Program-made: the position numbers and the translations under genes
Virus record (IMG/VR): IMGVR_UViG_3300047576_000104
Location: 1 to 64,000 of that record
Source of the DNA: a virus
Taxonomy: Duplodnaviria > Caudoviricetes
DNA length: 64,000 nucleotides
Reading direction: 5' to 3' (one strand)
Notes under the pieces: generated by a model
Database searches by the model: none
The model's input: the letters and a program-made list of their open reading frames with translations, nothing else
What the model was told of the DNA's origin: nothing
Shown here: in pieces, positions 29,011 through 57,151 of the stretch
How the letters are laid out: each line of letters starts with the position of its first letter
How positions within the stretch are numbered: the first letter of the stretch is position 1

Positions 29011-29868
29011 ATGACCTTCACGCCTGCTACTGAGGATGGATGTACCGTGATCGGGCACCCTGAGACGCGGGCTGCGCTGGAGCGGGAGCTGCCTTCCCAT
29101 CCTGTGCTGTTGCTTGGGCCGGAGTCTATTGGCAAGTGGCCGATGGTCAAGTGGCTGGTCAGCTATCATGCCTTCTGGTACAACTCCTGGTCAGCGGAGC
29201 ACCCGAGCATGGATTTCGTCAGGCGGATGCGGACTTTTCTGGCTTCGCCGCCGTCTCCTGCCCCGCGCGGTTCCGGGTTCAAGGTGGTTGCGCTTAACTT
29301 GGACGGTGCGAAGGCCAGCAGTGCTGTGCAGAACGCTCTGCTGAAGGATCTGGAGGAGCCGCCTGATTTTGCCAGATTTCTCCTGGTCTCTTCCAGGTCT
29401 CCGCTGGCCACGATATCAAGTCGCTGTGTTATCTGGAGGTGGGCCGGGCTGACTGACGAAGAGGTGGCCCGGGTGCTGGTGTCCAAGGGTGTTAGCCTGC
29501 GGGATGCTGCTGCCATCGCGCCAATTGGCAAGGGCCGGGTAGCTCCGGCTCTGGCTGCTGTGGAGCGGTTCCGGCCGGCCAAGTCTGCTGTGCTGGGCGC
29601 GGTGCGCGCTATGACTGCGCGGGACAGTGATCTTTTCGAGCGTGCGGTGAAGACATGGGGAGATACTGAGGACTGGATGCTGCGGGAGCTGCTCGGAGCG
29701 GCGGCTTCCGGTAATCCGACCTCTCTTTTCAGTAGTACCGAGCGGCAGATAATAGGCAGTTCGGTTGCCCGGCAGGGAATAGCCTTGCTGGCAGCCAGTG
29801 GCAGGGCCAGGCCGCAGCTAGCGATCCGTGCGCTGGCGGCCGAACTCATGGACGGAAGGCAGACATGA
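29011..29868 (+). CDS. Clamp-loader delta' (HolB)-like subunit
   Basis: VIGH, LLLGPESIGK, QNALLKDLEEPP...FLLVS...LATISSRC. Confidence 0.8.
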   Translation: MTFTPATEDGCTVIGHPETRAALERELPSHPVLLLGPESIGKWPMVKWLVSYHAFWYNSWSAEHPSMDFVRRMRTFLASPPSPAPRGSGFKVVALNLDGAKASSAVQNALLKDLEEPPDFARFLLVSSRSPLATISSRCVIWRWAGLTDEEVARVLVSKGVSLRDAAAIAPIGKGRVAPALAAVERFRPAKSAVLGAVRAMTARDSDLFERAVKTWGDTEDWMLRELLGAAASGNPTSLFSSTERQIIGSSVARQGIALLAASGRARPQLAIRALAAELMDGRQT

Positions 29869-30260
29869 CCACACCTCAGGATGTTCCTAGTGCTTCTGAG
29901 CTTCAGGCGGTGCAGAGCAAGCTGACTGACCTGGAGCAGTGCAACCAGGCTGAGCTGACGGCTATTGCACAGCTAGGGGCGCAGATTGACCCAGGTTCTC
30001 TTACCCTGATACGTGTTAATACGTTCGTTAGCTTTGTTTTTCAGCGTCTTGGCACCTCTTCCCCGGAGATACGGCAGATGCTTACTCTCTTGTTCGAGAC
30101 TGAGTATCAGGAGCAGATAGCTGAGACGCTTAAGGATGTCAAGACTGAGGTCCGTAAGCAGATGCTTACGGCCGGACCTCCCCCGAGTAGGGAACAGCTG
30201 AAGGAGATGCGGCGTCGGCAGCAGGGCAACGGACATGGCTCACCTTTTGGTTCTGGGTAG
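29865..30260 (+). CDS. Hypothetical protein
   Basis: Coupled ORF. Confidence 0.55.
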   Translation: MTTPQDVPSASELQAVQSKLTDLEQCNQAELTAIAQLGAQIDPGSLTLIRVNTFVSFVFQRLGTSSPEIRQMLTLLFETEYQEQIAETLKDVKTEVRKQMLTAGPPPSREQLKEMRRRQQGNGHGSPFGSG

Positions 30261-31223
30261 TGGCTTCGTATAGCCAATGGGCGGCATTCAGGGACAAGCA
30301 CGGCCCGTCCCGGATTACCTGGGTGTGCGGTGAGCAGCGTGTCTTGGTAAATGAGGTGGTAGGGGTTACGTCCAACGTCATTGGTGCCGATGACACGGAG
30401 CAGTGGTGTGCCGGCCAGGATAGTGAGCGCAATATCTGGGCAGGCATCCTGGCCATCCCCGCTTCCGGGTACAAGCGGCTAACAGTAGTGCGGGAGGCCG
30501 GGAAGCTGAAGGACTGGGAGTCGTCTTTCTGAGTATCTTGCCGCGCGCAGTTTGATGCAGGGGAGCTACGTGCTGTTTGAGGCTGAAGAGCATGACTTTC
30601 CGAAGGACGGGGACGGCAAGCTGGCACCTCCGGCAGATATGCTGCGGGATTCTACCCTCGGGCAGATCATCCGCTGTTCGCCATTGAATCAGGAGGATTC
30701 TGTCACGTGGGTAATCCATCAGCTTCCTGTTGTTTCTGACAGCCAGGCTAGGCATCTGCTGTCCCGGACGTCAGGCAATCTGGGAGAAGTACGGGCTGTG
30801 CTTGCCAAGGCTGGGCTCTTTAACGGGAGAATTACAGATGAGATTCTCGACCTTCTCTGTGCTGAGTTGCCCGGTGACTTCGCAGACAAGCTGATCTTTG
30901 GAGATTTGCCTGGTGCGATGCTGGCTGCGGAGACTATGGATGCTGCCAGTCTCGGGTATTCGATCGGGTATCTCGCGTCCCGGCTGGAGCTGCTGTCTAC
31001 GCTGTCGCGTGCTGCACAGGAAAATGTTCCCTGGCGAGATATTGTTTCCCGGATGGGAGTGCCTGCTTTCCTTGCGCAGAAGTATTTTGGGCTGGCCAGG
31101 ACAGAGTACGGGATTCTTCGCGTGCGCAGAGCATGGCAGGCGCTGTCGGTTGCGGAGGATGCGTATCGCGGCGGGGTATCAGCAGGTGTAGCGGAAGTTC
31201 TTGCAGCGTCCTGGTGGAGATGA
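30260..31223 (+). CDS. Clamp-loader delta (HolA)-like subunit, frameshifted near 30530
   Basis: WVCGEQRVLV...KRLTVVREA, then A.HLLSRTSGNL..V...L.K and lid/collar helices (MGVPAFLAQK, L..AEDAYRGG). Confidence 0.6.
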
Positions 31224-31882
31224 GAGAAATGACAGACAGTGATCGGTTCTGGCGGGTGTACGGGTCTAGCTGGTGTGTGATGTACGTCTCCGATAGCGAT
31301 GGTGAGGACGGGAAGCTGGAGTGCGTTCAGCGCTACAGGGAGCAGTACGCAGGCCGGGTTCAGGAGGGTGATTGGGGGCTGCGGGCGTGGAGCGATTCTC
31401 TGCCAGCTTCTTCCTGGCCGTGGATGCTCGTGCTGCGACTGTCGGTAATGCGCGGAGAGTACAGCAAGCGTCCGCCGGCACTGGAGCATGCGCACAAAAT
31501 TGCCGGTGCGGTAGTGCTGGAGGGAAGCCGCGCTGAGCTGGCTCTCCTGAGTTACGGTAAGAAGATGCTGAAAGCAGGTTCTGTTGATGGTCAGGAACTG
31601 GAGGCTGAGGGTTCGGCGCGCGGAGCTGCGGGCCAGGCAGGCTGAGCACAAGTATGATCGCATGTGCTTTGTGGCTGCGTATGCGCTTAGCCGGCTGTCG
31701 GACGAGGAGCTGCTGGAGATGAGGGCTGCGCTGGCTGAGGAGGTTAGCGGTGACGGCAGAGGAAGTGCTAGCCGAGTTTGATGCCTGGCTAGCTGCCTGG
31801 CCCGAGTGTCCGGCTAAGTGGTGGGTAGAAGAGAATCCTCCTCGCACGTGTCAGGTGATTCAGGCTGTAAGGGAAGCCGTGT

Positions 31883-34800
31883 ATGCCTAGCGCCAATACG
31901 GGTTATGTTTCCTCTGTCGCAGATCTGCGGCAGCTAGCAGACAAGGTGATTGCTGCCGGCCAGCCAATCGCTCTGGACTGCGAGACTGGATATGAGGGTG
32001 AGGATCGCAGTTACCGGAATACCAGTCCGTCTCTTCACCCGGAAGAGAACATAGTAGCCGGATACAACTTCACTAATGCAGTTAGCTGGGGCAGGTATGT
32101 TCCTCTAGGGCATGACGAAACCAGGTACAATCTGGATCCTGTGCCAGCAGCTCGGGCGCTGTGGGACATAACAGCTACCGGCTTGTGTGTTGTGCATAAC
32201 GCTGATATGGAAGAGCGCAACCTGTCCAGGTTCATGCTGGAGCACTTGTCCGATGATCCTGAGGTAGGGGCAGCCGTCCGGGCTAGCCGAGGGTATTTCC
32301 CTATTTTGTCAGACACTATGATGGAAGCTCATGCTCTTGCCAAGTGGAAGTCGATCGCGCTTAAGTCTCTTTCTAGGGACGTGTTCGGCTATGAGCAGGT
32401 TGAGCTGATAGAGCTTTTTAATGAGGTAATGTTCGGCATTCAGGGAAAGAAGCTGCCGAAGAACAAGAAGAACACACTCAGGTTTAATGTCCTGGATCCT
32501 TCTGATCCTCGTGTGTTTGATTATGCCTGTGATGACGTCATCCAGACGCTGAGATTGCACCAGCGTCACTATCCGCAGGTCAAGGACAACTTCATTTACT
32601 GGCTGGAGATGAATAACTGGCCCGTCATCTGGGGAATGGAGGATGAGGGCCTGGAGGTTGATTGGGACTTCATAGATGAGGCTAGGGGGCGAACCAGGGA
32701 TTTTCAGATAAAGATGCAGGCTGGTTTGGCTAATCATCTGATCGATCGTCTTGGCCAGTTGCCTCCTAAATTCAATCCGAACAGTCATCCTCAGATACGC
32801 AAGATCCTTTACAGCAAGCCCCCTGAGGGTTTTGGTCTATTTACGCACATAATGACTAAAGGTAAGGCCGATGGTTCGGGCAAGCAGCTTGCCACTAGTG
32901 CTCTTGCCTTGAAAGGTAACTCGGCTGATCCGTTCGTGCGCCGGATGCAGGACTATCGCGGTCTGACAAAGCTCCTGACTACGTACCTGGAGACCTGGAG
33001 ACAGGAGTTTGGCTGGTGCGATGACGGACGGGCGCACTGCCACCTCCTGCCTCACGGCACGCCTACTGGGCGGTTCAGCTGCACTGACTTTAACTATCAG
33101 AACCTTCCTAAGAAGTACCATTACGAGTGTGATGGTGCTGAGTTCTCCTTTAACTTCCGTGATTCAGTGATAGTTCCTCCTGGTTACTGGGGCATGGGAT
33201 TCGACATCAGCCAGGGAGAGCTGCGCATTATCGCCGCTGAGGCTGGCGAGCAGGCTATGCTCGATGCCTTTGCCAAGGGCGAGGATCTCCACATCCTGAC
33301 GGCTATGCGATTGCTCGGCCTGACAAAGGAAGAGGTGCTTGCTGGCGGTGAGTTGAACGGCGTAGAGTTCCCGGCAAGCCAGGGCGGGTTCAGGCCGTTC
33401 GGCAAGGCTCAGCCGTTGAGTGTGCCAGTGCTGACACCAGACGGATGGGTCACGATGGGTGATTTGCGAGTCGGAGACCGTGTGTTTGGGTCGGGTGGTT
33501 TCCCAGTGCGGATTACGGGTGTGTTCCCGCAGGGCGTGAAGCGGGTTTACCGGGTCACCACGTCGGATGGTGCTGTTACTGAGTGCTGTGCAGAGCATCT
33601 GTGGACAGTGCGCAACATCAACAGTGTTGGAGGTAGGTGGAGGACATGCGAGCTGCGTGAGCTGTTGGAAAGTGGTCTACGCAATATCAACGGGCAGCCT
33701 AAGTACGTGTTGCCTCCACGTCCAGTCATCCATTATCCGGACCCGCAAGAACTGACTGGGATGGCAGATGTAGATCCGTATGTTATGGGGTTGCTCCTTG
33801 GGGATGGTGGGTTTACGCAAACCGTTTCGTTTACCAATGCAGACTCCGAGCTGCTGTCTGCTGTGAAGGTGGAGCACGAACGGAACGGTGGGAGGGTACG
33901 CACTAAGCAACGACCGGGCCGAGATGATTTGTTGCTTGACGCGGGGGTGCGATACCGGCAGGACTCAAATGTAATTCGTAGAGCACTGCGCAGGTTTGGT
34001 CTTTTGGGGTTGAAGTCTCACAGTAAGTTCATTCCGGTTGCGTATATGCAGGGGTCTCCAGAGAGCAGGCTGGCTCTACTGCAAGGTCTTATGGATACAG
34101 ATGGCACAGTCCTAGCGTCTGGTGCACAGTTTCGGGTGACATCGGAGCAACTGGCTAGGGATGCGCAGGAGCTGGCTAGGTCACTAGGTGGTTGGGCATC
34201 GATCAGGACGTACCAGAAGGAAAGGTCTCCGCTGCACACCAAGTCAGACCCGTTGCCGACATGGGATGTGTACTTGCGGCTGCCTGACGGGATGTGCCCG
34301 TTTCGGCTGTCGCGTAAGAAAGAGAAATGGAAGCCGCCCCGGTATGTGGCGGATCAGCGCATTGTCTCTGTAGAGGAGGTGATGCCTGGTGAAGTTCGTT
34401 GTATTTCAGTAGATGCCAGTGATGGCCTTTACGTTACTAGTGACTATATAGTCACTCACAATACAATGAACTTTGCTTTAATGGGCACTGGGCTATCAGC
34501 TCACTGTGCAGGGCCTGGCTGACCGGCTTGGCTGCTCGATCGACGATGCCGCGATGCACTTCAACAACTACTTCGCTGCGTACCCGGCTATCGCTGCGTG
34601 GACCCGCCGTACTGTTGCCGAGTCCAAGGTGCGCGGGTTCACCATGAGCCGTCTCGGGCGCAGGCATCCCATCTGGGCGTATGAGTCGGACAAGTCGTGG
34701 ATTTATGCCGGGGGCGAGCGCACGGCCGGCAATGCCCCGATACAGGGCGGCCTGGCAGACATGATGAAGCTGATCATGATCCGGGTGCATGCGGCTCTTA

Positions 34801-35483
34801 AGGAGGCCGGGCTGCTAGACGCTGTGCGAATGGTCATGAACGTTCATGACTCCCTGGAGTTCTACGTCCGGAAGGACATATCTCCGCAGGCGGTGATCGA
34901 TTTGCTCGTTCCGGTGATCATCCAGCAGACACCGTGGACGCAGCACTGGCCGCTCATGGTGCCTGAATGGCATGTCTGGGAGAAGTGGGGCAGCCCGACC
35001 GAGCTGAAGCTGGATGAGAACCACCAGATCCTCGGTATGGGCGAGGTCATCGACATCGGAGAGCAGGAGGAGGATGACGATGATGACGAGGATGACGAAG
35101 CAGGTGTGGTTGGTGGCGTCGTGGCCAGTACGTCACACCAGCTACGCGAGCCCTCCCAGCACGTGGAGCCTGGTACGGGGGCGGGGACTGATCCTGTTCG
35201 GCATCATGATCCTGATCATCGCCATACTGGCTGCGTGATCGTCCGGGTAGATGAGATGCCCGAAGTGTCAGCGGTGCACCGGTTCCTGGGCATGGTCTCC
35301 GAGTTCCCCGGCCCTAACGTGATGGAGTTCCAGACTCCCGAGGGCGGTATGACAGTCAGCCAGGGTACGTCGCTGTCTCCTGATGACGGAGGCAAGATTT
35401 CCCTCTTGCTAGGCGGGGCGTCGGTGGTATGGTCTACTGAAACGGTAGACAGTAGTAAGCTAGCGCAAGGCATTACGTTCTAG
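31883..35483 (+). CDS. polA: DNA polymerase family A with 3'-5' exonuclease, intein, frameshift near 34480 and C-terminal extension
   Basis: ALDCETG/HNAD/YACDD exonuclease motifs; TGRFS..NYQNLP; DISQGELR (A); RPFGK-[intein]-TMNF (B); NAPIQG..AD.MK; VHDSL (C). Confidence 0.92.
33407..34462 (+). mobile_element. Class-3 (Ala-start) intein with LAGLIDADG endonuclease in polymerase motif B
   Basis: Starts AQPLSVPVLTPDGW; block B HLW; LLLGDG and LMDTDG; block F VRCISV; ends VTHN|T; 352 aa. Confidence 0.92.
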
Positions 35484-35495
35484 GTCAGGTGGGGT

Positions 35496-35840
35496 ATGCA
35501 GGTGTATCAGGGGATCGGGACCGAGTACGGGCATGACAAGTTCGGCATCACGCTGGACGAGACAGACCTGGCTCGCCTGGCTAACGAGTTCGGGTTCTAT
35601 ACAAGTCCGGGTGAGAACGGCGTGACCACTGACCAGGCATACAGGCTGCTGTCGATCGACGCGGAACGGTACGTGCTTGTGCAGGCTCCTAAGTTCGGCC
35701 GGAAGATTGAGGACGTCATGGCCCAGCTCTGGGGACCGGGCGGTAACCGCGAGCAGTTCGCGACGATCCTGGTGGAGGTTACCGGGCTGGAGCTGAGTGA
35801 GTGCAGGAAGCGTGTGGGATTCCAAGATGAGTCAGCGTAA
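35496..35840 (+). CDS. Hypothetical protein
   Basis: 114-aa ORF with RBS. Confidence 0.55.
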   Translation: MQVYQGIGTEYGHDKFGITLDETDLARLANEFGFYTSPGENGVTTDQAYRLLSIDAERYVLVQAPKFGRKIEDVMAQLWGPGGNREQFATILVEVTGLELSECRKRVGFQDESA

Positions 35841-36609: not shown

Positions 36610-36874
36610 TTGACGATCTGTCGACCGAGGAAGAGGTTAAAAGGATTCTGTTCGCGGTTGCCTGGTACGGGCCGTGGGAGCGGTTGGAAGGATTCTTCTT
36701 CGGCGTGCGTAAGGATGGCACTCTTCGGTGGGATATTCGTGATGATGGCAGTGATTCCTTCTTGCTGGCCCTTCTCGGTCGGCTAGGTGCCTGGGCTAGC
36801 TACAGGGATTGTGCCTGGCGGCATCGTTATGTAGAACAGGGAATCAAGCCGTGGTTTGTATGGAGGCGAGGGCG

Positions 36875-37901: not shown

Positions 37902-39416
37902 ATGCCTCAGGCAGATTTCACAGGCGAGTACAGCTCCAACGGCAACCGCAGCACCTACCCGAAGCTGAAGCTTCAGACCAATGAGCGCGCCCGCGTGTGC
38001 GTCATCACCAAGCCTCACGTTGAGTACCTTCACTGGCTCGAAGCCCCCAAGATCGTCAACATGTCACCGGTCTACAAGAAAATCACGGATCGCGATCAGA
38101 ACGTGCAGTGGGTGCCGGAGACGCGGATGGTGGACCGGGCCATCTGCCCAGGCACGTTTGAGACCTTGCGTGAGCGCGGGGTGGATGAGGCGCACTGTGA
38201 TGCGTGCCGTATGGCACGCGAGCGTCCGGACATCTTCAGGCCGCCTAACACCAGGTACGCGTCAACTATCATCCGGTACAGCCTGCGGCCCAACGGCGGG
38301 TGGAACGATCTCACTGTCCCGTTCAGCATGGGTGCCCTGGTGTGGGCTTTCAGCGGCAAGGTCTTCGACAAGCTGAGGAACATCCAGACCATGGGTCCGG
38401 GGTACGAGGACATCCGCGCGGTGGACCTGTGCCTTGAGTGCACGGACCAGAACTTCCAGAAGCCGTACAGCCAGGGAGAATTCCAGGCCCTGACTCCGGC
38501 CGTCTGGATGCTGAACGATCAGATGCGCGATTACACGGTCAAGTTCCTGGAGCAAAACCAGGCTGCTGAGGCAGACCTTCTTGACGCGATCGGGAAGAGG
38601 CTCAAGCCTGACTGGATGGCCGATGATCTCCTTCGGATCACCCAGGCGTGGGATGTGGTGCGTGCTCACGAGGCACGGCAGCAGGGCGGTGCTCCCCAGC
38701 TCGGGCAGGGCTTCGGTGCTGAGTCCTTCGGTCAGGGCATGCAGAATCTCCAGCAGCAGTTCGGCCAGGGTGGTGGTCAGCCTAACCCCACTCCGCCTGG
38801 TGGCGGCTGGCAGCCACAGCAGGCACAGGGGTCAAACGGTGCTCCTCAGCCTGGTATGGGCGGAGGCGGTGGCGGCTGGCAGCCCGGTCCCGCCCAGTCC
38901 GCTGGCGTGGACATGAGCTTGCTCAACGGGCAGCGGCTTCAGCAGTCGGTTCCCCCGCCTCCGGCTCCTACAGGGCTTGAAGGCATTGAGCAGTTCCGGC
39001 AGCCGAATCCCACGCCTCCGGGGCCTATCACCAATATGCCAGCTGAAGCCTCGCAGAGGGCAGATGCCCTGTACGAGGCAGCTCAGCAGGCTCCTCCTCA
39101 GAGAGAGCAGACACCGTTCACGCAGCTTGCCGCCGCTGAGCTGGCACAGAATCCGATCCCGAACCCGGTGGCTGATGCCTTTACGCAGTTCCAGGCCCAG
39201 CAGGCCGCTCCGGCTCCGCAGCCTAGTCAGCAGGGGCAGGGCCCTGTGCCTGATGGCCTGAGCGGGCTCACGGAGTTCATGGCCAGTCAGACAAGTAATC
39301 CGACGCTGACCCCGCTGCCCGCTGCCACGCCATCGTCAGGAGCAGCTCAGGCAGCTCCTGCGGAGGCCAAGCGTTACTCGTTCGAGGATCTCAAGCAGCT
39401 GGCAGACGGTAAATAG
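37902..39416 (+). CDS. Single-stranded DNA-binding protein (gp32-like) with long Q/P/G-rich tail
   Basis: KLKL...ERARV..., HW, C...CDAC, VWAFSGKVFDKL, DLCLEC..QNFQK; low-complexity C-terminus. Confidence 0.55.
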   Translation: MPQADFTGEYSSNGNRSTYPKLKLQTNERARVCVITKPHVEYLHWLEAPKIVNMSPVYKKITDRDQNVQWVPETRMVDRAICPGTFETLRERGVDEAHCDACRMARERPDIFRPPNTRYASTIIRYSLRPNGGWNDLTVPFSMGALVWAFSGKVFDKLRNIQTMGPGYEDIRAVDLCLECTDQNFQKPYSQGEFQALTPAVWMLNDQMRDYTVKFLEQNQAAEADLLDAIGKRLKPDWMADDLLRITQAWDVVRAHEARQQGGAPQLGQGFGAESFGQGMQNLQQQFGQGGGQPNPTPPGGGWQPQQAQGSNGAPQPGMGGGGGGWQPGPAQSAGVDMSLLNGQRLQQSVPPPPAPTGLEGIEQFRQPNPTPPGPITNMPAEASQRADALYEAAQQAPPQREQTPFTQLAAAELAQNPIPNPVADAFTQFQAQQAAPAPQPSQQGQGPVPDGLSGLTEFMASQTSNPTLTPLPAATPSSGAAQAAPAEAKRYSFEDLKQLADGK

Positions 39417-39420
39417 TCCG

Positions 39421-43417: not shown

Positions 43418-44450
43418 ATGATACGTGAGATAGAAGTTACTAATTTCCAGTCACTAAAGCATCTTCAGGTCAAGCTCGGCAGGTTCACGGTGATTACCGG
43501 TCGCACTGGGGCTGGCAAGTCAGGGCTCATCCGGGCCCTCAAGGCTTTGGTGTTCAACGCTCGTGGAACGAGCTATATTACGCGCGGTGAGAAGCAGTGC
43601 TCTATCTCCATGACCGGAGGGAGCGAGACAGCTAAGCATGAGTGCGATGTTGACGGCTCATGCGATGTATGCAAGGTCTATGGCCTGTGCTCGCGGTGCG
43701 GATGTCCTGAGCACAGCATGTGGCAGGCCACCATTCAGCGTGGCACCAAAGATCAGTACCAGCTCGCGGTGGGGATAGCTCAGAAGACGTACACCAAGCT
43801 GGCCGGCAAGGTCCCGGAGGCTGTTTCCGATACGCTTCGTCTCGGTGAGATCAATTTCGCTGCGCAGTTCGACAAGCCGTACCTGCTGGACTCCACGGGC
43901 GGGGACGTGGCCAGGGTACTCGGCAAGCTCACCAACGTCACCGTGCTGTTCCGAGCAGCGCAGGAGGCGAACCGGCGTAGGCTCCAGGTGTCTGGCGAGT
44001 TGAAGACCCGGCAGGCTGACCTGGCTTCTCTGGTGGAGCAGATCCAGCAGTACGCTACGCTGCCGGCCGAGCAGGCTGCCGTGGAGGATGCTGAGACGAG
44101 GATGACTCACCTGCATCTCTTGTACGGGAAGCAGGAGAGACTAAGTTCTCTGACCACTGCCCTGGAGCTGGCGCAGGCAAGGCTGGGCCTCATCAGACCG
44201 GTGCCCGAGCCTCCGTCGCTGGACCGGCTGGCGGATGCTGATCGAGCAGCATATCTGGATATCGCAACTGATGAGATCTCTTCAGCAGAGGGAGGCGGAC
44301 CTGGTTAACGCTCGCTGGCGTGAAGATGGCTGCGTACGAGAGGTATCAGATGCTGAGCAGGAGCTAGCCGGGTATGTTAGCCAGTGGGGTATCTGCGAGA
44401 CTTGCGGGCAGCCAGTTCAGAAGAAGCATGCGCATCAGGGAGAGAAATGA
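43418..44450 (+). CDS. SbcC/Rad50-like ATPase, N-terminal half (Walker A, coiled coil, zinc hook); frameshift near 44240
   Basis: IEVTNFQS...ITGRTGAGKS.LIRAL, QFDKPYLL; ends CETCGQPV in ORF 44235..44450. Confidence 0.82.
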
Positions 44451-45472: not shown

Positions 45473-45601
45473 CATGGAAGAGGTTCCTGTAGTGGACGGT
45501 GGTGATGAAGTTCCTGTACGGATACTTGTGTGCGAGCCTTACGCAAATGGCCAGGGTTGGTGGCACGTACCGTTCTGTGTCCATATCAATTGGAGCGATT
45601 G

Positions 45602-46564
45602 GTGAAGGCGCTACTGCTCAGTGATATCCATCTGTCGGACAGGCCACCATCCAGTTGCACTGAGTCCTACATGGAGGATCTGCTCAAGCTGCTAGGCGAG
45701 ACGGTGGCCGTGGCGGAGGAGTACAAGGTAGATGCCGTGGTGTGGGCCGGGGACGTCTTCAACAGCAAGGCTCCGGCCCGGAACAGTCACTGGCTGGTAC
45801 AGCAGGTCACCGGGGTTCTTCTCGCCTATCAGCGGCCTTGCTACATCGTGCCGGGCAATCATGACGTTCAGCACGATGACCTCTCCAGCATCTGGAAGAC
45901 GCAGCCGCTCGGCGTGCTGTTCCGGACTGGCGTGGCTAAGCCGCTGATCGGGCAGTGCCGGGAGTTCGCTCAGTTGTACGGAGTCCCATGGCAGCAGGAG
46001 TGGTCTAACGAGAGCGTGGGCGAGGCACTGCGCGTCTGGCGGGAGGAGTGGACTCAGACGAGGCGCGGTGGCCTGGTTGTGGCGCACGCTCCGCTCTATC
46101 CTCCGGGCTTGGAGCTGCCGTATGAGTACTATGACACGGTGATGTGGGCGGCTGCCATGGGGCATCAGGGTTCCTGTTTCTACGGACATGTGCACGAGTA
46201 TCACGGCTCTTACGACGTTGCCGGAGTCAAGTTCTGCAACAACGGTGCGCTGAGCCGTGGATCGTTGCACGAGCATAACTTGACCCGGCAGGTGATGTGC
46301 ACTATCTGGGATAGCGCTGATGCTAGCTTCACCGAGGTACCGCTGCACGCCAAGCCGGCGTCGGAGGTGTTCCGGCTCCGTGAGAAACAGGAGGTTGTCG
46401 ACTCCGCACTCAAGCTGGACGAGTTCCTGTCCGGGGTCGGGAGCACGCAGTTCGATGTGCTGTCGGTGGAGTCTGTGCTCGCGCATGTCCGTGGGCTTGG
46501 TGTTGGCAAGGACGTTGAGGATGAAGTAGCCGAGCTGCTGGACTGGAGCAGTCACCAGACATGA
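45602..46564 (+). CDS. SbcD/Mre11-like metallophosphoesterase nuclease
   Basis: SDIHL, AGDVF, PGNHD, VAHAP, GHVH, NNGALSR. Confidence 0.88.
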   Translation: MKALLLSDIHLSDRPPSSCTESYMEDLLKLLGETVAVAEEYKVDAVVWAGDVFNSKAPARNSHWLVQQVTGVLLAYQRPCYIVPGNHDVQHDDLSSIWKTQPLGVLFRTGVAKPLIGQCREFAQLYGVPWQQEWSNESVGEALRVWREEWTQTRRGGLVVAHAPLYPPGLELPYEYYDTVMWAAAMGHQGSCFYGHVHEYHGSYDVAGVKFCNNGALSRGSLHEHNLTRQVMCTIWDSADASFTEVPLHAKPASEVFRLREKQEVVDSALKLDEFLSGVGSTQFDVLSVESVLAHVRGLGVGKDVEDEVAELLDWSSHQT

Positions 46565-46846
46565 GCTGGCGGCGGAGAAGAGATGGTTATGACCCTCCTC
46601 GGGACGTGCGTATAATACGGCCAGGTCTGCCTGACGTTAAGTGCGGTGTTTTGCGTGATCTGAGTGGGGATAAGAAGGGCGACGCTGCTTGGGTTGCAGT
46701 ACCTATTGAGCCTGTTATGTTCAGGGTAGGCATAGATAAGATAGAGATAGGATATGTCCCTGCTCACTCTATAATTTCTCTAGAGATGCCTGTGGATTCT
46801 GATGAGTCATTACGGCAAAGAGACTGGACTGGTCGGCGCATCAAAC

Positions 46847-47338: not shown

Positions 47339-47373
47339 TGATCGACATGCTTTTCCGGAGGAGGTGATGCTAC

Positions 47374-48266: not shown

Positions 48267-48280
48267 GAAGAAGCTACGCT

Positions 48281-48715: not shown

Positions 48716-48957
48716 TGGAAGACGTGACCGCTCACGTGGCCAGCCTGCGCGCTCGCGTGGATGCTGCGGTTCGTGCCAGGACCGGGGCTGAGTATGCCCG
48801 TCAGCAGGCCGAGCAGGCTGTGCAGACGGCCACTGCTGCGCTGAAGCAGGAGTTCGGTGTGGAGACGCCGGAGCAGGCGCAGGCTCTGCGAGCTGATCTC
48901 GATAGCAAGATCGCTGCTGAGATCCAGAAGATCGAGCAGGCGCTAGGAGGAACATGA
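48715..48957 (+). CDS. Small coiled-coil protein
   Basis: Heptad-rich, LKQEFGVETPEQA. Confidence 0.6.
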   Translation: MEDVTAHVASLRARVDAAVRARTGAEYARQQAEQAVQTATAALKQEFGVETPEQAQALRADLDSKIAAEIQKIEQALGGT

Positions 48958-50099
48958 CTGACGAGCAGATCCTCGGGTTTACTGCAAAGCGGTTTCATCT
49001 GCTTCAACTGGTCAAGCGCGCAGTCGTGGCCATCCCAGGCAAGAACATCTATCCGCTGCTGGCAAACTTCCAGGTCGTGGTAGGGGACGGCAGGCTCCAG
49101 GTGACGGCTACGGATATGGAGCTGAGTGTCGTCAGTGAGTCTGAGCTGGTGGTATGCAGCGGCTCTGGCACTCTGCTGCTTCCGGCTAAGCGCTTCCTGG
49201 AGATCCTGACTTCGGCTGCCGAGGGAGATGTGAGCGTCAAGGTCTCTGCCGGTACTGCCTCCATCACGGCCGGCACTGCTTCATGGTCGCTGGTGCTTCA
49301 GTCTTCAGAGGACTACCCTCTTCGTCCGGCTGTGAAGGACATCGCTTTCACGGAGGTCAGCAGGGCGAAGTTCCTGGCTGCTCTCGTCCTGGCCAGGAGT
49401 GCTGCCAGCCGGGACGGCACCAACCCCCGCCTGATGGCGATCAGCATTTCGGGCGGGAAGGTGATCGCAGGCTCGCACGTGCGCCTTCACCGGGTCATCC
49501 TGTCTGGCATAGTGCTTCCAGATATTCAGATCCCGATCGGCGCTGTTGATGATCTGGTGCGCCTGCTGAAGGACAGCAGCCTTGAAGAGATCGGCATAGG
49601 CGAGGCGGAACATGACCTGGCCTTCCGGATCGGGTCAGACGTGTTCATGTCCGGCAAGCTGGCCAGCGAGTATCCAGATATGGAGAAGCGGCTGCTGACT
49701 CCTCCGCTCCTGTCTAACAAGGACGAGCTTCGGGTAGACAAGAGCGACCTTGTGGCAGCTATCAAACGGGTCAGGATTACGGCTGACGCAGGTTCGGCAG
49801 CTATTGGCCTGCGGATAGTGCCCGGCGCGATCAGGGTTATCAGTCAGGATCAGAACCATAACACTGCCTGCGAAGAGATCCCTGCCCAGTGGAGTCATAG
49901 GCAGCGTCTGCTGGTAGTTAATCATGAGCACCTGGCAGACCTGCTAGGGCTTGCTGAAGGTCCGCAAGTGCTTTTCGTGCTAGGCGAGGACTCAGGCAAG
50001 CGCCGGAGTCCTCTGGTACTGAAAGATGATAAGGCCGGCACTGCCGGTGTTATAGGCCAGTTGGCCGTAGTTCTGATCGAGTTAGCGAGAGTAGAAGCT
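48954..50099 (+). CDS. dnaN: DNA polymerase III beta sliding clamp
   Basis: PLLANF, LQVTATDMELS, G.LLLPAKRF.EI, EDYP, K.LASEYPD, LVAAIKRV. Reads through in frame into the cold-shock gene. Confidence 0.88.
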
Positions 50100-50474
50100 A
50101 TGTCAGCAGGTGTTGTAAAGACCTGGATGGAAGACCGTGGTTTCGGGTTCATCACCGAGGATGGCGGTTCGGATGTGTTCGTGCATGTTAAGCAGCTGCC
50201 TCAGGGCGTCAAGCAGCTTCAGCCGGATACCAGGGTGATGTTCGAGAAGAAGCAAACGAATCGCGGGGTGCAGGCGTTCGGCGTTATGCTCGATGCAGAT
50301 AGCGGTCCTGATGATCCTCCTGACTTTCTCACTGAGAGGGAGTTCCTCAGGGATCTGAACGGACTTCTCCCTCCGCTCAGGGAGGTCCACAAGCAGGCTC
50401 TCATGGACATCGCCAGAGATCACGGGTGGGTGGTTGATTTATGCCTGAGCTGCGTGACTTGGAAACTCGCGTGA
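50100..50474 (+). CDS. Cold-shock domain protein
   Basis: GVVKTWMEDRGFGFITEDGGSDVFVH (RNP1/RNP2)...RGVQA. Confidence 0.88.
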   Translation: MSAGVVKTWMEDRGFGFITEDGGSDVFVHVKQLPQGVKQLQPDTRVMFEKKQTNRGVQAFGVMLDADSGPDDPPDFLTEREFLRDLNGLLPPLREVHKQALMDIARDHGWVVDLCLSCVTWKLA

Positions 50475-51079
50475 GTGCTGCTAGACATGCGTATGAGCGC
50501 AGGGTCGGTGCTGCCCAGCAGCTAGGAGAGGCCGGCCTGAGGATGCAGGCTGAGGTGACCAGGCTGCAAGATCTTCAGGAGAGGCACGCTAAGGTCTCTG
50601 CCCTGCTGACATCGTTGGGCGAGAAGGCTCAGCAGCAGGCGCAGGAGCGACTGGAGGAGCTGGTCACCCGTGGCCTTCAGGTCATCTTCGGCACAGAACT
50701 CTCATTCCATGTCATCCAGTCGGTGAAGGCCAATCAGGCAGTCACCGAGTTCATGATCCGGTCGGAGTACGACGGGATGACAGTGGACACTTCGGTCATG
50801 GATGCCCGAGGCGGAGGGATGGCCGCTGTCACAGGTTTCATGATCCGGCTGGTGGTACTGCTGCTTACTCCGCGAGCCCGGCGTGTTCTCTTCCTGGATG
50901 AGACGTTCAGGTTTGTGTCCAGCGAGTACGAGGGACGACTGGCGGAGTTCCTGGCTGAGGTGGCAGAGCGAGCTGGCGTACAGATCGTGCTAGTTACCCA
51001 CTCGTCAGCGTATGACGATGTGGCCGATGCACGGTACCGATTGGAGCTGGGGAGCAATGGAATCGCTACCATCGTCTGA
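50441..51079 (+). CDS. SbcC/Rad50-like ATPase, C-terminal half (signature + Walker B)
   Basis: Coiled coil, DARGGGM, LFLDETF..VS, QIVLVTH. Confidence 0.85.
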   Translation: MPELRDLETRVSAARHAYERRVGAAQQLGEAGLRMQAEVTRLQDLQERHAKVSALLTSLGEKAQQQAQERLEELVTRGLQVIFGTELSFHVIQSVKANQAVTEFMIRSEYDGMTVDTSVMDARGGGMAAVTGFMIRLVVLLLTPRARRVLFLDETFRFVSSEYEGRLAEFLAEVAERAGVQIVLVTHSSAYDDVADARYRLELGSNGIATIV

Positions 51080-51128
51080 GCTGGAGCTGGTAGTTCTTGA
51101 TCGAGCTGGGTGAGTAGCAGGTATAGTA

Positions 51129-51238
51129 CAGGTAAGGGCAGGCAGCCAGCAGCGTGTCCTTACCTGGTTCCTGCCGTGAAACCTAGGGTGGCGTGCCCCA
51201 CCTCGTCATTACGGCTCTAGCAGAGTAGCGGCAGGAAC
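51129..51238 (+). ncRNA. Candidate structured RNA: 12-bp hairpin followed by a 72-nt multi-branch element
   Basis: CAGGTAAGGGCA/TGTCCTTACCTG; GTTCCTGCCG (51167-76)/CGGCAGGAAC (51229-38) enclosing GGTGG/CCACC, CGT/ACG and GCTCT/AGAGT hairpins; TATAGT -10-like box at 51122. Confidence 0.5.
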
Positions 51239-51265
51239 TCGTATTACTGGTGGGAGGTGGGAATT

Positions 51266-54138
51266 ATGTCTGACTGGAGCCCGGAAGCTATCAGCAAGTT
51301 CATCAACACACATGCCTATAAGCTAGATGGCCCGGCCCAGTGGGCAGGAACAGAGCCTAACTCCCGGCATAAGGATTGGGATTCAGCATCGTTCCGGATG
51401 CTCATGGCTGCGTCCTGGCCTTACGATCAGGCGGCTGGTAATCAGTCGATCCCTGCTGTGTGGAAGGCAATCAATGATCGACGAGCCGATTACCTATGCG
51501 ATCGGTACTACCTTCCAGCTACTCCCAGGGATATGCGCATATTCGAGCGGTCAGGTGTTCCTGTTTTTGGCATCGAGTCAAGGCACCCTCTCCGCGATTT
51601 CGATGTGGTGGGGACCAGCATCTCTTACGTTGTTTTGCTAGTTAATTTCACGAAATACCTGTCCATGTCAGGTGTGCCGCTGCGCTGGCGTGACCGTGTG
51701 CCGGAGGAGCACCCCATGATCATGATCGGCGGGCAGGCGTTCTGCAATCCGGAGGCCATGGCCCCGGTAGCCGACTGCATCTTCGTCGGTGAGGCTGAGG
51801 ATGAGCCGGGTAATGGCGGCATTGGGCAGGTCTGCCGGATGATCGAGATGTTCAAGAAGGAAGGTATCTGGAATGAAGATCGTGTCGCTTGCTATCAACG
51901 GCTTGCCCGTACCTTCAACTACCTCTACTTCCCGCGTTTCGTGGATGTGCGATACTCCGTGGGGTCCGGCCTGGACGGAGCCCCTACCAAGGCCGTATCC
52001 GGATATTCCAGCCAGCTAGACGGGATGCGGATGCCGTTCCGCAAGCGGCACGTCATCGACCTGGACAAGATCAAGCCGCTGGACGATCCGCCGCTGCTGT
52101 ACGTCGATCCGTCACTGGGCTCGGGTGATTTGGAAGCTCAGCGGGGTTGTCCGGCTTGGTGCAGCTTCTGCAGACTTTCTTTCGCGCAGAAGCCCCCCCG
52201 GCAACGCTCGGTGGGGTTCCTGACAGAGTTTGCGCAGCGGCTACAGCGCAATGTTGGTGGTGTGGAGATTAGCCCGTTCGGTCCAGATTGGCCATTTGTT
52301 ACCAACAAGAACCAGGTTCTTAAGTCGTTGCTAGAGAATGTCACTGACAAGACAGATACCGTGGCTCAGCGAGTTGACGACTTTATCAGTGATGAAACAT
52401 ATCTAGTCCTTCAGGCAGTTGGAGGTGCACGCTCTATTACCCTCGGGCTTGAGGGCGTTAGTCAGCGGATGCGTGACTTGGTTGGCAAGGCCACGTCTGA
52501 CGCTGAGGTGCGCGAAGCTGTCACTCGTGGCATCCGCGCAGGGTTCAAGAAGTTCAAGCTGTTCATGATCGTCGGCCTGCCGGGGGAGGACACCGGGGAC
52601 GTGGCCAGGATCATGCAGTTGGCCCGTGACCTGGCAGACATTCGTGATTCGCTGGCTACTGACAAGGTGCAGATCCAGTTCAGCTTCACGCCGCTGCTAT
52701 ATGAGGCGCAGACTCCTTTCCAGTGGTTCCCTACGTGGCCGGTGCCGGACCATGACCTGATTGACGTGGCCAATGAGCTGAAAGAGCTGAAGATCTTGTT
52801 CAAGATTGGCACTAAGGCCGAGACGAATAAGGTTCACTTCTTCCAACTCTGCCAGAGGGCCAGCCGGGACGCGGGCGAGGCCATTATCGATGTTCTGGAA
52901 GAGATGGACATGGGCTGCTGGGGAGGCGTGCCCAAGGACATGCAGGCAAGGCTGGATGCTGCCCTGAAGAAGCGACGGCTTTGTTAATGGGTTCGGTGAT
53001 CTGTTCGGGGAGCGTGACCGTGGGGACATGCTCGGCTGGGAGTTCATCGATACGGGCATCAGCCGGGACCTGTTGTGGAACACGTTCGTCAAGATGCGCG
53101 AGTTTGCTGAGCGCACTGATAGCGCTACCTACGATACGAAGTTTGATGAGAGGTACCATGGGCAAGAGTGGATCGACCGATGTGACGAACGCTGTATGGG
53201 CCAGTCATGCGGCGTATGCACGGGAGAAGATCTGCGACTGCGGAAGTCATATCTTGGAGCGGCAACTGCCGACCGGGCTGTATCGGTGCGGGATGTGCAA
53301 GCCGGTCGATCAGACCACCGTTGCCGTACGTGTCCGCGCTAGGCTGGCACGTCCTGCCGAGTTCCGCTACGCCGACAACGGATTCAGGCGACACCTGCTG
53401 CGGCGTGCCGGATACCGGGCTCAGGAACTGCTCGGCGGGCCGTGTGTGTCCAAGAATGCCATCTGGTTCGCTTCCGATGCCCATGGTTACCGGGACTGGA
53501 CCTTCGGCACTGATTACGTGGACTTCGGCCTGACGCGGCGCATCCGCAGGCTGAACAATGCCGAGCATGACTGGATGATGAAGCTCCGGACTGAGCTGGC
53601 ACCGTGGCTGGAGCTGAAGGAGTGGCAGGTCTATCCGGCTACGGTGTCCATGCGGTCAGCGTCGGGGGCCAGCCTGCACGAGCTGGAGATCAATGACGCT
53701 CCCGATACGGTTCGCGCCCGGCTTCGTGACTGGGAGATGTCCGAGCACGTGAAGCTCCTGATAAGGCAGGAGGGGTCCTACTTCGCGGCGGCCACCGAGG
53801 AGGTCAACGCGAAGGACTACGTGGATGACCTCTGGCTGGTGCGGGACGGCACCCGGCTGCTGCTGAAGATGCTCGCCAGGCACCGGGCAGGTCCGTACCA
53901 GGTGTACCAGGCGCTCATGAGCAAGCCGAGCTGGATCGAGGCGGCCCAGTTCCCGGCCCGCACCCTGGACGTGTTCTCGTGCCGTGATGAGTTGGAAGGG
54001 AGAGTGTGCCCGCGCTGCGGCAACTCTCTCCCGGAATCACTGATAGGCATCCAGTGGGATGGTGTCTACTGCGCACGGTGCAAGGATGAGCGGGCCAGGA
54101 TCGTCCTGGCCGGCCTGACGAGGGAGACAGTCGGATGA
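51266..54138 (+). CDS. Radical SAM protein, TIGR03960-like, fused to a TIGR03936/DUF2344-like domain; frameshifts near 52975 and 53295
   Basis: FGIESRHPLRDFDVVGTSISY, GGQAFCNPEAMA...GEAE, RGCPAWCSFC (CxxxCxxC), SQRMRD..GK, KLFMIVGLPGE, TPFQW, WEFIDTGISR..LW, CGVC, then RARLARPAEFRY...LLRRA. Confidence 0.82.
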
Positions 54139-54446
54139 TCGCAGTAGTAGGACCGCAGGAGCTCCGGGCGGCAGCGGAGTTGATCCGTACCAAGGGCCAT
54201 TGCAAGCACGAGCTGCACGATGATGAAGGACGGTACTGTGCGGTAGGAGCCATTTTTGCTGTGACTGCTGGCCTTGATTCGCTGCCGCCGTTTCTGAATA
54301 GCATTTCCGGTGAGCTGTTTCCTGGACAGTTTGAGTACGGGCAGGAAAATCTCGTGTGCTTCAACAATCACCCGGACACCACGGCAGAGGATGTCATATC
54401 CGTGCTGGAGAAGGCAGCGGCTCGGCTGGAGGAGGCAGTCCTGTGA
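54135..54446 (+). CDS. Conserved phage protein (DUF6197-like)
   Basis: LRAAAELI..KG.C...GRYCAVGAI...FNNHP.TTAEDVI.VLEKAA. Confidence 0.65.
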   Translation: MIAVVGPQELRAAAELIRTKGHCKHELHDDEGRYCAVGAIFAVTAGLDSLPPFLNSISGELFPGQFEYGQENLVCFNNHPDTTAEDVISVLEKAAARLEEAVL

Positions 54447-55591
54447 CGGACCGGGAGACTCTCGGGAAGCTGCTGGCCAAGCGCGCTCGTGTCCGGGTGC
54501 AGAATCCGGTGATCGAGTCTGCTGTGTGGGAAGGCACCATCATCGCGCTGGCTGACACACCGGGCATCATCATAGAGTGCGATGACGGTCTCCGGATCGA
54601 TCTCCCGCAGTCGTTCAAGGTTACCGAGGTGATTCGTGTGACAGAGTATGGCAGCTGGCTTGAGATGCGCCAGCGGCAGGCGGAACTAGCTATGGAGAGC
54701 AACGTGAGTTTCAGCGGCAGGCCACAGGCGTGGACAACATCATGTGGGACGCCGAGCCCTGGTGGCACGTTGTGCTCGTTCCCGCCGCATAGTGCGCCGG
54801 GAGGTAGCGCATTGCATTCGTGGTCGGTTCCGGAGGTCTATGGCACGGACGCAGAGGTGCAGGCGGCGTTCGCGCAGCCAGCTCCGAAGCACAACGACGG
54901 CCCGTCCATGCATGATCTGGTGATCAAGGACATCCTGTCGCGTGACCTGCAGTGGGACTTGTCGGTTGGTTCAGCCAGGCACATCAGGGATCAGGTGGCT
55001 GAAGATCTGCTGGCCCGCAAGGCGTTCGGCCTGGACAAGTACAAGACGATCCTTCAGACCGGTAATGGCCGGAGCTTTCTCCTTGACCTGTACCAGGAGC
55101 TGATGGATGCTGTGTGCTACGCACGGGGCAGGCTCCTGGAAGTGCCAGAGGACGGCTTGGAGTGGCTGATCTTGTTCGAGATCTACGATCACGTGGCGAC
55201 AGACCTGGTGACGCTTCGGAGGCTGCTGAACGCGGCGGAGGCTAGCACCGAAAGCTTATCCGTGCGCTCGGTGTCGCTAGGTGGGAGGCAGGCCGTGGCA
55301 GACAGCGACTTCTCGAAGACGTGGCAGGAGATGCCTGGAGGCCAGGACATCGGTGACCAGTACATCATGGAGCCTGGCGCAGACACTGCGTTTGAGTGCT
55401 TCATGGAGACGGCGAGAGATGCCTTTGACCGGCTGCAGGCGCGTCGACACGAGGGCAGGTTCGCTCACCTCACTGGCCAGGTCGGCCGTGGGTTCGAGCG
55501 TCCGGTTGATGACGGAGAGCCGACCTGCTACCGGAGTGGCATAGGAGTCATGGTTCATGGTCCTGGCTGTCATTGCGAGAGCACTTCGTGA
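54443..55591 (+). CDS. Composite ORF containing an all-alpha NTP-pyrophosphatase (MazG-like) domain
   Basis: DLLARKAFGLDKYKT.LQ..NGRSFLLDLYQELMDAVCY; may be several genes merged by errors. Confidence 0.5.
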   Translation: MTDRETLGKLLAKRARVRVQNPVIESAVWEGTIIALADTPGIIIECDDGLRIDLPQSFKVTEVIRVTEYGSWLEMRQRQAELAMESNVSFSGRPQAWTTSCGTPSPGGTLCSFPPHSAPGGSALHSWSVPEVYGTDAEVQAAFAQPAPKHNDGPSMHDLVIKDILSRDLQWDLSVGSARHIRDQVAEDLLARKAFGLDKYKTILQTGNGRSFLLDLYQELMDAVCYARGRLLEVPEDGLEWLILFEIYDHVATDLVTLRRLLNAAEASTESLSVRSVSLGGRQAVADSDFSKTWQEMPGGQDIGDQYIMEPGADTAFECFMETARDAFDRLQARRHEGRFAHLTGQVGRGFERPVDDGEPTCYRSGIGVMVHGPGCHCESTS

Positions 55592-56017
55592 ACATTAGTG
55601 ATTCTGCCAAGTGCCCTGCCTGTGAGGCGATGGTTGAGCCTGAGCAGGACGGGGACCTGATCTACTACCCGTGCGGCTGTGGTTTCGAGTTTAACTACAC
55701 GCGCATACCGCAGCAGGATGAGGCCTGCCAGGCAGGCATACCGGAAGACATTCGCAGGGCGGCGCAGCCTGCGCCTGAGGCTACTAGCCTGCCCCTTCTA
55801 CAGATAGGCAGGCGTCCGTAGTGAGTCTCAGACAATCTATAACTACTCCGCACGGGGTGCTGACTGTTGTTCAGCCCTACGCTTACGTCGCAGACGAATG
55901 GCCGGATGCTTCTCCGGATGTCATGGTGTCTGAGCCGCCGTACGCCCTGCTGAACGACAAGCCCATCACTGCAAAGCGTGCTCGTGAGATCCTACGAGGG
56001 ATGCAAAGGAGCGCCAA

Positions 56018-57151
56018 ATGAATCTTGCGCTCGAATTCCGTCCCCGCAAGTTTTCTGACATAGCAGGCCAGCCATGGGTCAGCCTGGTGCTGGACATGAT
56101 GGTGCGCGAAAATGAGGTGCCAGAAGCTCTGATCTTCCACGGTGTCCGTGGCACAGGTAAGACATCAACCGCGCGAATCCTCGGATCGGCGCTCAACTGC
56201 GAGGAAGCAGGAGAGCGTCCTTGCCTGGAGTGCGGTTCGTGCAAGTCGGTGCGCAGCGGCAATTCGGTTGACGTGATCGAGGTGGACGCGGCTACCAATG
56301 GCCTGGCAGAGGATATTCGTCATTTGTGCGACATGGTGACTTATGACGTCGGAAGTCGCAATCGCGTGGTAGTGCTGGACGAGGCACACGGTGTGACGAA
56401 GAAGGGTTTTGATGTCCTGCTCAAGACATTCGAGGAGCCTCCCCCTCGTGTGACGTTCGTGCTCGTCACCACTGAGCCAGCGCAGATTCCAGAGACGATC
56501 CACAGCAGGGCCACCAGCTTCGGATTCAGGCGAATTGGGTTGAGGCACATCATCGAGCGGCTCGTGATGATCCGTGATGCCAAGGGCCTGATAGTTGAAG
56601 ATGACGTGCTCGCTGCTATCGCTGACCGCGCGGATGGCGGGATGCGCGATGCGATCATGCTGCTCGATCAGGCGTCCCGGGCAGGTGCAGGGACGCTGGA
56701 GCGCTTCTACGCGCAGACTGGAGAGGGTGACTTCGCTCCCGGTCTCTTGTCCATCATGGCGTCAGGCCGCCTGGGTGACTTGTACGAGCACCTGGAGCAT
56801 CTTGTCTGCGAAGTAGGCGACTGCCGATTGATTGCAGCCAGGATTGTCCGTTGCTTGCGGGATATCCTGGTGCTGCACGCGGGAGGCAGTACTGTCATTG
56901 CTCAGGGTGAGGCGCTGGCAGCTCGGATGAGCCTCGCGTCCCGTCTTACGGATGTGCAGGTGGTCGGAGCGATGCGCGTTTTCTGGGACCTGCAAAAAGT
57001 GCAGTCTGGTAATGATCCGCGCATGGTTCTTGATCTTGCCTGCGTGATGGCCAGTGAGGCGTTCGCTCCTCAGCGCCAGGCGGTATCAGTGCCTAGCAAC
57101 GGTCATCGGAAGGCGACCATGAACGACATCACGGCGCTTATCGGATCCTGA
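56018..57151 (+). CDS. dnaX: DNA polymerase III gamma/tau clamp-loader ATPase
   Basis: LALEFRPRKFSDIAGQ, GVRGTGKTSTARI..LNC, PCLECGSC, EVDAATN, LDEAH, LLKTFEEPP, TTEP..IPETIHSR, DGGMRDA..LLDQ. Confidence 0.95.
   Translation: MNLALEFRPRKFSDIAGQPWVSLVLDMMVRENEVPEALIFHGVRGTGKTSTARILGSALNCEEAGERPCLECGSCKSVRSGNSVDVIEVDAATNGLAEDIRHLCDMVTYDVGSRNRVVVLDEAHGVTKKGFDVLLKTFEEPPPRVTFVLVTTEPAQIPETIHSRATSFGFRRIGLRHIIERLVMIRDAKGLIVEDDVLAAIADRADGGMRDAIMLLDQASRAGAGTLERFYAQTGEGDFAPGLLSIMASGRLGDLYEHLEHLVCEVGDCRLIAARIVRCLRDILVLHAGGSTVIAQGEALAARMSLASRLTDVQVVGAMRVFWDLQKVQSGNDPRMVLDLACVMASEAFAPQRQAVSVPSNGHRKATMNDITALIGS

Follow-up and report, generated by a model that had tools for sequence, protein, structure and literature searches.

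Across the three domains of life, replicative polymerases share no homology, whereas sliding clamps and clamp loaders do, and the exchange of catalytic subunits within this conserved clamp/loader framework is an open evolutionary question. The question takes a concrete form in a 64-kb stretch of tailed-phage DNA, the first 64 kb of the IMG/VR virus record IMGVR_UViG_3300047576_000104 (100,988 bp; the stretch is hereafter called the window), which encodes a beta clamp and a clamp loader of the type known from bacterial DNA polymerase III (Pol III) together with a single polymerase, a family-A enzyme (PolA). Which polymerase, then, do the clamp and its loader serve? An earlier interpretation of the window, made from its letters alone (the sequence-only reading), had proposed a self-sufficient replisome with PolA as the clamp-bound replicase. 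On the strength of sequence comparisons and structure models, we consider it fairly probable that this phage family assembles a holoenzyme in the style of Pol III, with a proofreading family-A polymerase in the place of DnaE. The family would then offer a natural and experimentally tractable case of a family-A enzyme at work in a complete bacterial-type clamp system, apparently by way of a DnaE-like C-terminal domain.

The window has a G+C content of ~59% and carries nearly all of its genes on the plus strand; contigs containing its sequence come from peat and permafrost metagenomes. Its closest cultured relative is Microbacterium phage Magritte (OR553905.1; complete, 133,228 bp), which is syntenic with it at 29–41% protein identity. 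Magritte was grown on Microbacterium foliorum, and the hosts of the Magritte-like clade are probably actinobacteria. A pattern scan of IMG/VR with the clamp as a single sequence retrieved no relatives, and megablast of 8 kb against GenBank phages gave no match. An alignment-based IMG/VR scan succeeded, yielding the genomes G001 (139,587 bp, direct terminal repeats, 100% complete; 51–79% protein identity), G003 (133,696 bp, terminal repeats, 100% complete) and G002 (141,276 bp, 96% complete), as well as the fragments G004 and G005. The record and G001 are collinear, and the ends of the former map to ~84.2 kb and ~99.6 kb of that genome, within the tail module, so that ~15 kb of tail genes are absent from the record. 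The window belongs to a Magritte-like tailed phage from peat, with a genome of roughly 115–140 kb when complete.

Each subunit of a bacterial-type clamp and clamp loader could be recognized on the plus strand (Table 1), and profile matches bore out the genes for delta', delta, DnaX, the beta clamp and the DnaB helicase that had been named from the sequence. DnaX scored above the cut-off of its curated model (TIGR02397, 258.6 bits; cut-off 250), matched PF13177 (3.7e-29) and the lid domain PF22608, and has a Walker A motif (GTGKT), a Walker B motif (VLDEAH) and a CxxCxxC zinc module; because it stops after domain III, without the tau C-terminal domains IV–V, it is gamma-like rather than tau-like. 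In the case of delta', the probable start of which agrees with its orthologues, PF13177 was matched at 6.8e-8, the top NCBIfam matches were all to holB (best, TIGR00678, 8.7e-15), and the best sequence match in the Protein Data Bank (PDB) was E. coli delta' (1a5t, 6.9e-5). The protein has the SRC motif and a degenerate P-loop (GPESIGKW) and lacks a DExx motif; its 54.8 bits against TIGR00678 lie below the curated equivalog cut-off of 180.6, making it a distant member of that family at best. The C-terminal part of delta, taken as a single sequence, matched the holA model weakly (TIGR01128, 5.5e-6), and a profile of five orthologues matched Bacillus subtilis delta (3zh9) over its full length (1.9e-4). 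When the G001 orthologue (51% identical) was modelled with AlphaFold (pLDDT 84), the top match was likewise 3zh9 (3.4e-11), with the E. coli delta chains 8giy_A, 1jr3_D and 3glh_A ranking ahead of gamma chains and TM-scores of 0.57–0.69 against delta subunits; delta is a three-domain delta fold without ATPase motifs. The profile check of HolA and HolB that the sequence-only reading had called for thus gave matches for both, that of HolB staying below its equivalog threshold.

For the clamp, Pfam recognized the N-terminal (PF00712, 4.9e-17) and C-terminal (PF02768, 1.1e-5) domains, TIGR00663 was matched at 6.4e-23 (81 bits, under the cut-off of 137.65), and the profile of the clamp family matched solved beta clamps in the PDB at 2e-38 over positions 15–370, that is, over its full length. 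Most curated-model scores of these Pol III-type subunits fall below the equivalog cut-offs. Magritte, G001 and G003 likewise encode the clamp and DnaX. Orthologues of delta and delta' lie directly upstream of the PolA gene in five of the five IMG/VR relatives, and the order delta'-delta-PolA is kept in these relatives and in Magritte.

The catalytic subunit was sought with PF07733, the model of the DnaE/PolC core, and PF00136, that of family B. PF07733 had no match in the 100,988-bp record, in Magritte or in any of G001, G002, G003, G004 and G005; PF00136 is absent from the record, Magritte, G001, G002 and G003. The earlier observation that the only polymerase in the window is of family A therefore extends to the whole record, and the search for dnaE beyond the window, proposed at that time, came back empty in the record and its relatives alike. 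Each relative has exactly one intact PolA, of 808–894 aa. As the same architecture is found in complete relatives, it is a stable trait of the clade rather than an artefact of a partial record. The PolA of the window, the N-terminal extein of which is 72% identical to the intact G001 enzyme, has motifs A (DISQGELR), B (R..GK..NF) and C (HDS) in addition to 3'-5' exonuclease motifs; neither a Pfam scan nor motif reading revealed a 5'-3' exonuclease domain. This combination fits a replicase rather than a trimmer of Okazaki fragments.

Further evidence comes from the end of the protein. Past motif C, PolA continues with an acidic linker and a stretch of ~100 residues whose conservation extends from the window to Magritte and which includes a domain of ~75 residues. 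The top six Foldseek matches of the modelled domain were all to the Pol III alpha subunit (2hpi, 3e0d and 4iqj), and E. coli alpha (5fku) came tenth. Superposition on Thermus aquaticus alpha (2hpi, residues 1128–1205) gave a Z-score of 7.1 and a root-mean-square deviation of 2.7 Å over 73 residues, and Z was 7.3 for 4iqj_A and 5.6 for E. coli alpha (5fku_A, residues 1081–1160), as against 4.0 or less for unrelated folds; in an independent search of 48,161 representative chains, 2hpi_A was the only match with a Z of at least 5. As modelled, the end of PolA has the same fold and the same place as the C-terminal domain of Pol III alpha, which does not by itself prove homology. A profile of this C-terminal region searched against 1.84 billion representative proteins retrieved 193 clusters, always at the extreme C-terminus, and all eight of the eight long cluster hits that were scanned proved to be family-A polymerases, some with inteins; none was DnaE. 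The last residues of these proteins have the pattern ...LGGA.V.[YW]....VD...L..G[LIM]x[LF]-COOH, the terminal part of which, VD...L..G[LIM]x[LF]-COOH, is the consensus of ~150 cluster representatives, and among the real genes of four genomes PolA alone ends in G-[LIM]-x-[LF]-COOH.

Table 1. Positions, within the window, of the replication genes and associated features discussed in the text.
Feature	Position	Strand	Basis or remark
DnaX, gamma-like (domains I–III only)	56018–57151	+	377 aa
delta'	ORF 28951–29868 (opens with GTG 28951; probable start ATG 29011)	+	holB-type matches
delta	30260–31223	+	holA match, orthologue profile, orthologue fold; frame broken here
Beta sliding clamp, three domains	48954–50081	+	Pfam, TIGR00663, family profile
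PolA (whole)	31883–35483	+	Only polymerase of the window
PolA N-extein: 3'-5' exonuclease motifs, thumb, motif A, start of motif B (...RPFGK)	31883–33406	+	PF00476, 1.6e-26
In-frame LAGLIDADG intein in PolA motif B, 352 aa	33407–34462	+	LAGLIDADG_3, 6.3e-7
PolA C-extein: rest of fingers, palm (motif C HDS), acidic linker, C-terminal domain	34463–35483	+	PF00476, 6.4e-27
PolA C-terminal domain, predicted Pol III alpha C-terminal (tau-binding) fold	35226–35450	+	Model, pLDDT 86
Conserved PolA C-terminal tail (...KLAQGITF-COOH), candidate clamp-binding peptide	35451–35480	+	Family-wide consensus
Small conserved ORF between delta and PolA	31226–31645	+	Homologues at the same place in G001 and G003
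TTA at the expected stop of the clamp, then cold-shock-domain (CSD) gene in the same frame	50082–50474	+	CSD, 1.1e-14
DnaB-like replicative helicase	23784–25271	+	PF03796, 7.7e-24
Primase zinc-finger protein, 191 aa	25689–26264	+	Zinc-finger region only
SSB-like protein	37902–39416	+	34% identity to Magritte gp72 'single-stranded DNA binding protein'; annotation only

Building on the identities of the subunits, the absence of DnaE and PolB from complete relatives, the synteny and the fold match of the PolA C-terminus, the following mechanism may be envisaged. A presumably pentameric clamp loader of the bacterial type would be formed from three copies of the gamma-like DnaX and one each of delta and delta', and would place the beta ring encoded by the phage on primed DNA. 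PolA would stay attached to the ring through its conserved C-terminal peptide, a putative clamp-binding element hanging from the small domain that is folded like the tau-binding domain of Pol III alpha and that presumably has a partner of its own. The view of PolA as the partner of the clamp gains support from the delta'-delta-PolA gene order, the alpha-like domain and the family-wide tail. A more far-reaching version, which we hold only tentatively and would not expect to prevail in full, is that a clade of PolA enzymes, comprising ~190 clusters of which nearly all are uncultured, gained the C-terminal module of DnaE and plugs into gamma3-delta-delta'/beta, a swap of the catalytic family, and that this phage and G001 additionally use TTA as a terminator or 'hungry' codon (see below).

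Several results weigh against a PolA-based holoenzyme. The alpha-like domain was recognized by its fold alone, and its Z-score of 7.1 lies under 8, the value below which the tool advises caution with fold matches. Pfam gave nothing for the domain at E<=0.1, PF20914 had no match at E<=10 in five genomes, and hhalign against the C-terminal domain of E. coli alpha returned a probability of 0.2%; the homologues gathered for E. coli DnaE were only near-identical enterobacterial sequences, too narrow a set for a profile. Tau domain V, the bacterial partner of the alpha domain, was not found in five genomes with PF12170, an insensitive model that matches just 2 of 14 control genomes. The tail of PolA, through which the enzyme is presumed to bind the clamp, is non-canonical, and PolA contains no QL[SD]LF clamp-binding motif. 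The catalytic core of DnaG (PF08275) is absent from five genomes of the clade, and the description of the replisome as self-sufficient is not borne out. Last, delta and PolA are both frame-broken in this genome as assembled, delta by an additional G in the GGG run at 30516–30518 and PolA by a 10-nt insertion that shifts its frame. The proposal of the sequence-only reading that PolA is the clamp-bound replicase accordingly gains from synteny, the alpha-like domain and the conserved tail and is tempered by these two broken frames, neither of which, like the intein in PolA, had been noticed before.

The absence of a recognized primase core means that some help from the host is needed in any case, and one may ask whether this help extends to the polymerase, such that the phage clamp and loader recruit the host DnaE and PolA is left with gap filling, repair or recombination-dependent synthesis. 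DnaE is the enzyme that the beta clamp and the gamma/delta/delta' loader are established to serve in bacteria, and the genome is found in several peat samples even though its PolA is frame-broken in this strain. We nevertheless consider the recruitment of host DnaE unlikely: the phage DnaX is devoid of the tau domains by which DnaE is held, PolA combines proofreading motifs with the lack of a 5'-3' exonuclease domain and itself bears an alpha-type C-terminal domain and a conserved terminal tail, and delta', delta and PolA are adjacent in all relatives.

The two broken frames raise another possibility, namely, that the module is defective in this particular genome, with delta and PolA being pseudogenes of a decaying or helper-dependent variant. 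This we regard as rather improbable. The extra base in delta is lacking from the contigs of two related peat strains, and the contigs of the source run itself break exactly at this site (depths 5.5 and 2), so that the extra base may stem from an assembly error or from a mixture of strains; upon removal of one base, delta becomes a protein of 320 aa that aligns end to end with the intact orthologues. The insertion in PolA, TTAATGGGCA at 34478–34487, was defined by comparison with the G001 DNA and lies five codons past the intein. It is identical in contigs from two runs and hence is not a random assembly error; the contigs of the more divergent runs do not cover the site. Even with the intein removed, the PolA of the window is not one uninterrupted frame. 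In favour of a defective module, intact related strains co-occur in peat, and IMG/VR labels the record a 'provirus'. That label could be dismissed, however, given that homology to internal genes of the G001 tail module is found at either end of the record and no host flank is present; no integrase domain was detected among ~60 open reading frames (ORFs) in the Pfam scan, which was not a search aimed at integrases. Furthermore, all other genes are intact and syntenic.

The insertion in PolA begins with TTA and ends with GCA, an alanine codon like the preceding GCT. It is a matter of speculation that a ribosome stalled at the TTA could slide to the GCA and restore exactly the G001-type PolA, an outcome that would speak against a defective gene. 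RNA folding around the insertion (z -0.31) revealed no structure that would support programmed bypass. A group I intron was also considered as the cause of the break and rejected, the Rfam scan of the window having found no family. The nearby intein sits after the motif B lysine and ends ...VTHN|T; relatives carry inteins at the same site, and there is none in G001 or Magritte. Over the intein region (window 33650–34435), one contig shows no differences in a run the other contigs of which diverge by a few percent, which suggests that the intein has recently spread horizontally between strains.

TTA is nearly absent from real reading frames of this phage (5 of 10,659 codons in 27 confident genes), and it recurs in frame where genes are expected to stop. 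The TTA at 50082–50084 occupies the stop position of the clamp orthologues, 38 relatives ending there (...VVLIE); another, at 50439–50441, coincides with the expected stop of the csp gene behind the clamp, and a third with that of a gene ending at ~79346 of the record, beyond the window. In G001, TTA stands at the stop positions of delta, of several other genes and of PolA, where it comes after the family-wide terminal GLSL. Downstream of such TTAs there is typically a Shine-Dalgarno sequence and then the next start codon. No case of this kind was seen in G003 or Magritte, and tRNA-Leu(UAA) is encoded by neither this phage nor G001. If real, the pattern would be a rare instance, in a phage, of termination at a sense codon; if TTA is indeed a terminator or 'hungry' codon, the apparent fusion of the clamp to the CSD protein would be illusory and ribosomes could slide over the 10-nt insertion in PolA. 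Among ~40 relatives, only the 99%-identical P0001 shares the clamp-CSD read-through, so that the fusion is no family trait, and the order in G001 is clamp, stop and then csp. Judging from these comparisons, the 'fusion' is probably two proteins.

The least probable explanation, and a distinctly improbable one, is that the clamp mainly acts as a non-replicative platform, either as a mobile activator of late transcription or as a hub of repair and recombination: T4 gp45 is an established precedent, Mu MuC with the host clamp is another (PMC12867686), and the clamp gene is ~13 kb away from PolA, its neighbours including nuclease and Rad50/Mre11-like genes as well as others, but no other gene in four genomes has a PolA-type tail or a consistent QLxLF motif, the loader genes are linked to PolA rather than to transcription genes, and a platform role would not exclude a replicative one.

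A holoenzyme centred on PolA, as favoured here, has a published precedent in part. Homologues of PolA, Pol III beta and Pol III gamma have been reported in the phages Ma-LMM01 and RSL1, where beta was proposed to be the processivity factor of PolA, and E. coli Pol I was noted to be stimulated by beta; only gamma was found, and the composition of the loader was left open (Kazlauskas and Venclovas, 2011; PMC3201878). A later survey made no addition on delta or delta' (Kazlauskas and Venclovas, 2016). The novelty that the sequence-only reading implied for the combination as such therefore does not hold: the idea of PolA with beta and gamma in phages is already published, and what is new is the full loader set, its tight linkage to PolA and the DnaE-like C-terminal module. 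A literature search turned up no publication dealing with Magritte, nor one describing an alpha-like domain in the PolA of a phage. Like Ma-LMM01 (a Microcystis phage) and RSL1 (a Ralstonia phage), the present clade has PolA as sole polymerase, a bacterial-type clamp, a DnaX-like ATPase and no DnaE. Unlike them, it encodes delta and delta' next to PolA, its PolA has the alpha-like C-terminal domain and tail (the profile of the C-terminal domain had no match in the PolA of Ma-LMM01 or RSL1), and its genomes measure ~100–140 kb, compared with >150 kb. In Ma-LMM01 (AB231700, 157489–158636), the family-A polymerase is split into adjacent ORFs of 443 and 327 aa.

The phage module parallels bacterial Pol III in its three-domain beta, in a DnaX with Walker motifs and zinc module, in a delta' with the SRC motif and a dead P-loop, in a three-domain delta and, with respect to alpha, in the fold of the PolA C-terminal domain. 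It differs from Pol III in that the catalytic subunit belongs to family A rather than C and has proofreading built in, and in that tau domains IV–V, chi, psi and epsilon were not seen in the phage. The T4 system (gp43, gp45 and gp44-62) and that of T7 (gp5 and thioredoxin) likewise represent phage-encoded processivity of a replicase, and in T4 the C-terminal tail of the polymerase binds the clamp. However, T4 combines a family-B enzyme with a trimeric PCNA-like clamp and an RFC-like loader, whereas the T7 PolA relies on thioredoxin and has no clamp. Magritte has the same set as the window, with gp4 as DnaX, gp62 as delta', gp67 as delta, gp69 as PolA with the C-terminal domain and gp247 as beta. 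Genes 4, 62, 67 and 247 of Magritte, that is, those for DnaX, delta', delta and the clamp, are annotated 'ASCE ATPase'; the clamp is no ATPase. Practical gains would be the corrected annotation of these four genes and a compact, five-gene processivity system for PolA.

The remaining replication genes of the window are assigned with varying firmness. The DnaB-like helicase is 70% identical to its G001 counterpart and 41% identical to Magritte gp51. The primase zinc finger named in the sequence-only reading is present: the protein is a homologue of Magritte gp59 'DNA primase', and its zinc-finger region matched the DnaG model TIGR01391 (0.0076) and phrog_47 (2.4e-5). The SSB-like gene of the same reading could be assigned solely from the annotation of its Magritte homologue, with no sequence match in Pfam, NCBIfam, PHROG or the PDB to confirm the assignment. 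For the protein encoded at 27948–28844, the hints from the Atlas were of sigma/HTH-like proteins rather than of a primase. No lead was obtained from Pfam, PHROG or the Atlas for the conserved ORF between delta and PolA, or from database scans for another small ORF, at 29865–30260.

Further observations concern other genes of the record. A large radical SAM protein (Radical_SAM_N2 and Radical_SAM; window 51257–52987) shares 78% identity with its homologue in G001 and 52% with that in G003, and the same search gave no match in Magritte. An intein that contains an HNH endonuclease interrupts the large terminase (record 65850–67898), to which Magritte and G001 align in the flanks only, and an ORF of 626 aa (record 85783–87663) contains a LAGLIDADG/homing-endonuclease insert, G001 aligning only over the first ~175 residues. 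A Rad50/SbcC-like ATPase is encoded as separate N-terminal and C-terminal genes ~6 kb apart (window 43418–44308 and 50441–51079), with a Mre11-like phosphoesterase at window 45530–46564, and this arrangement of the split Rad50/SbcC and Mre11-like genes is kept in G001, G003 and Magritte.

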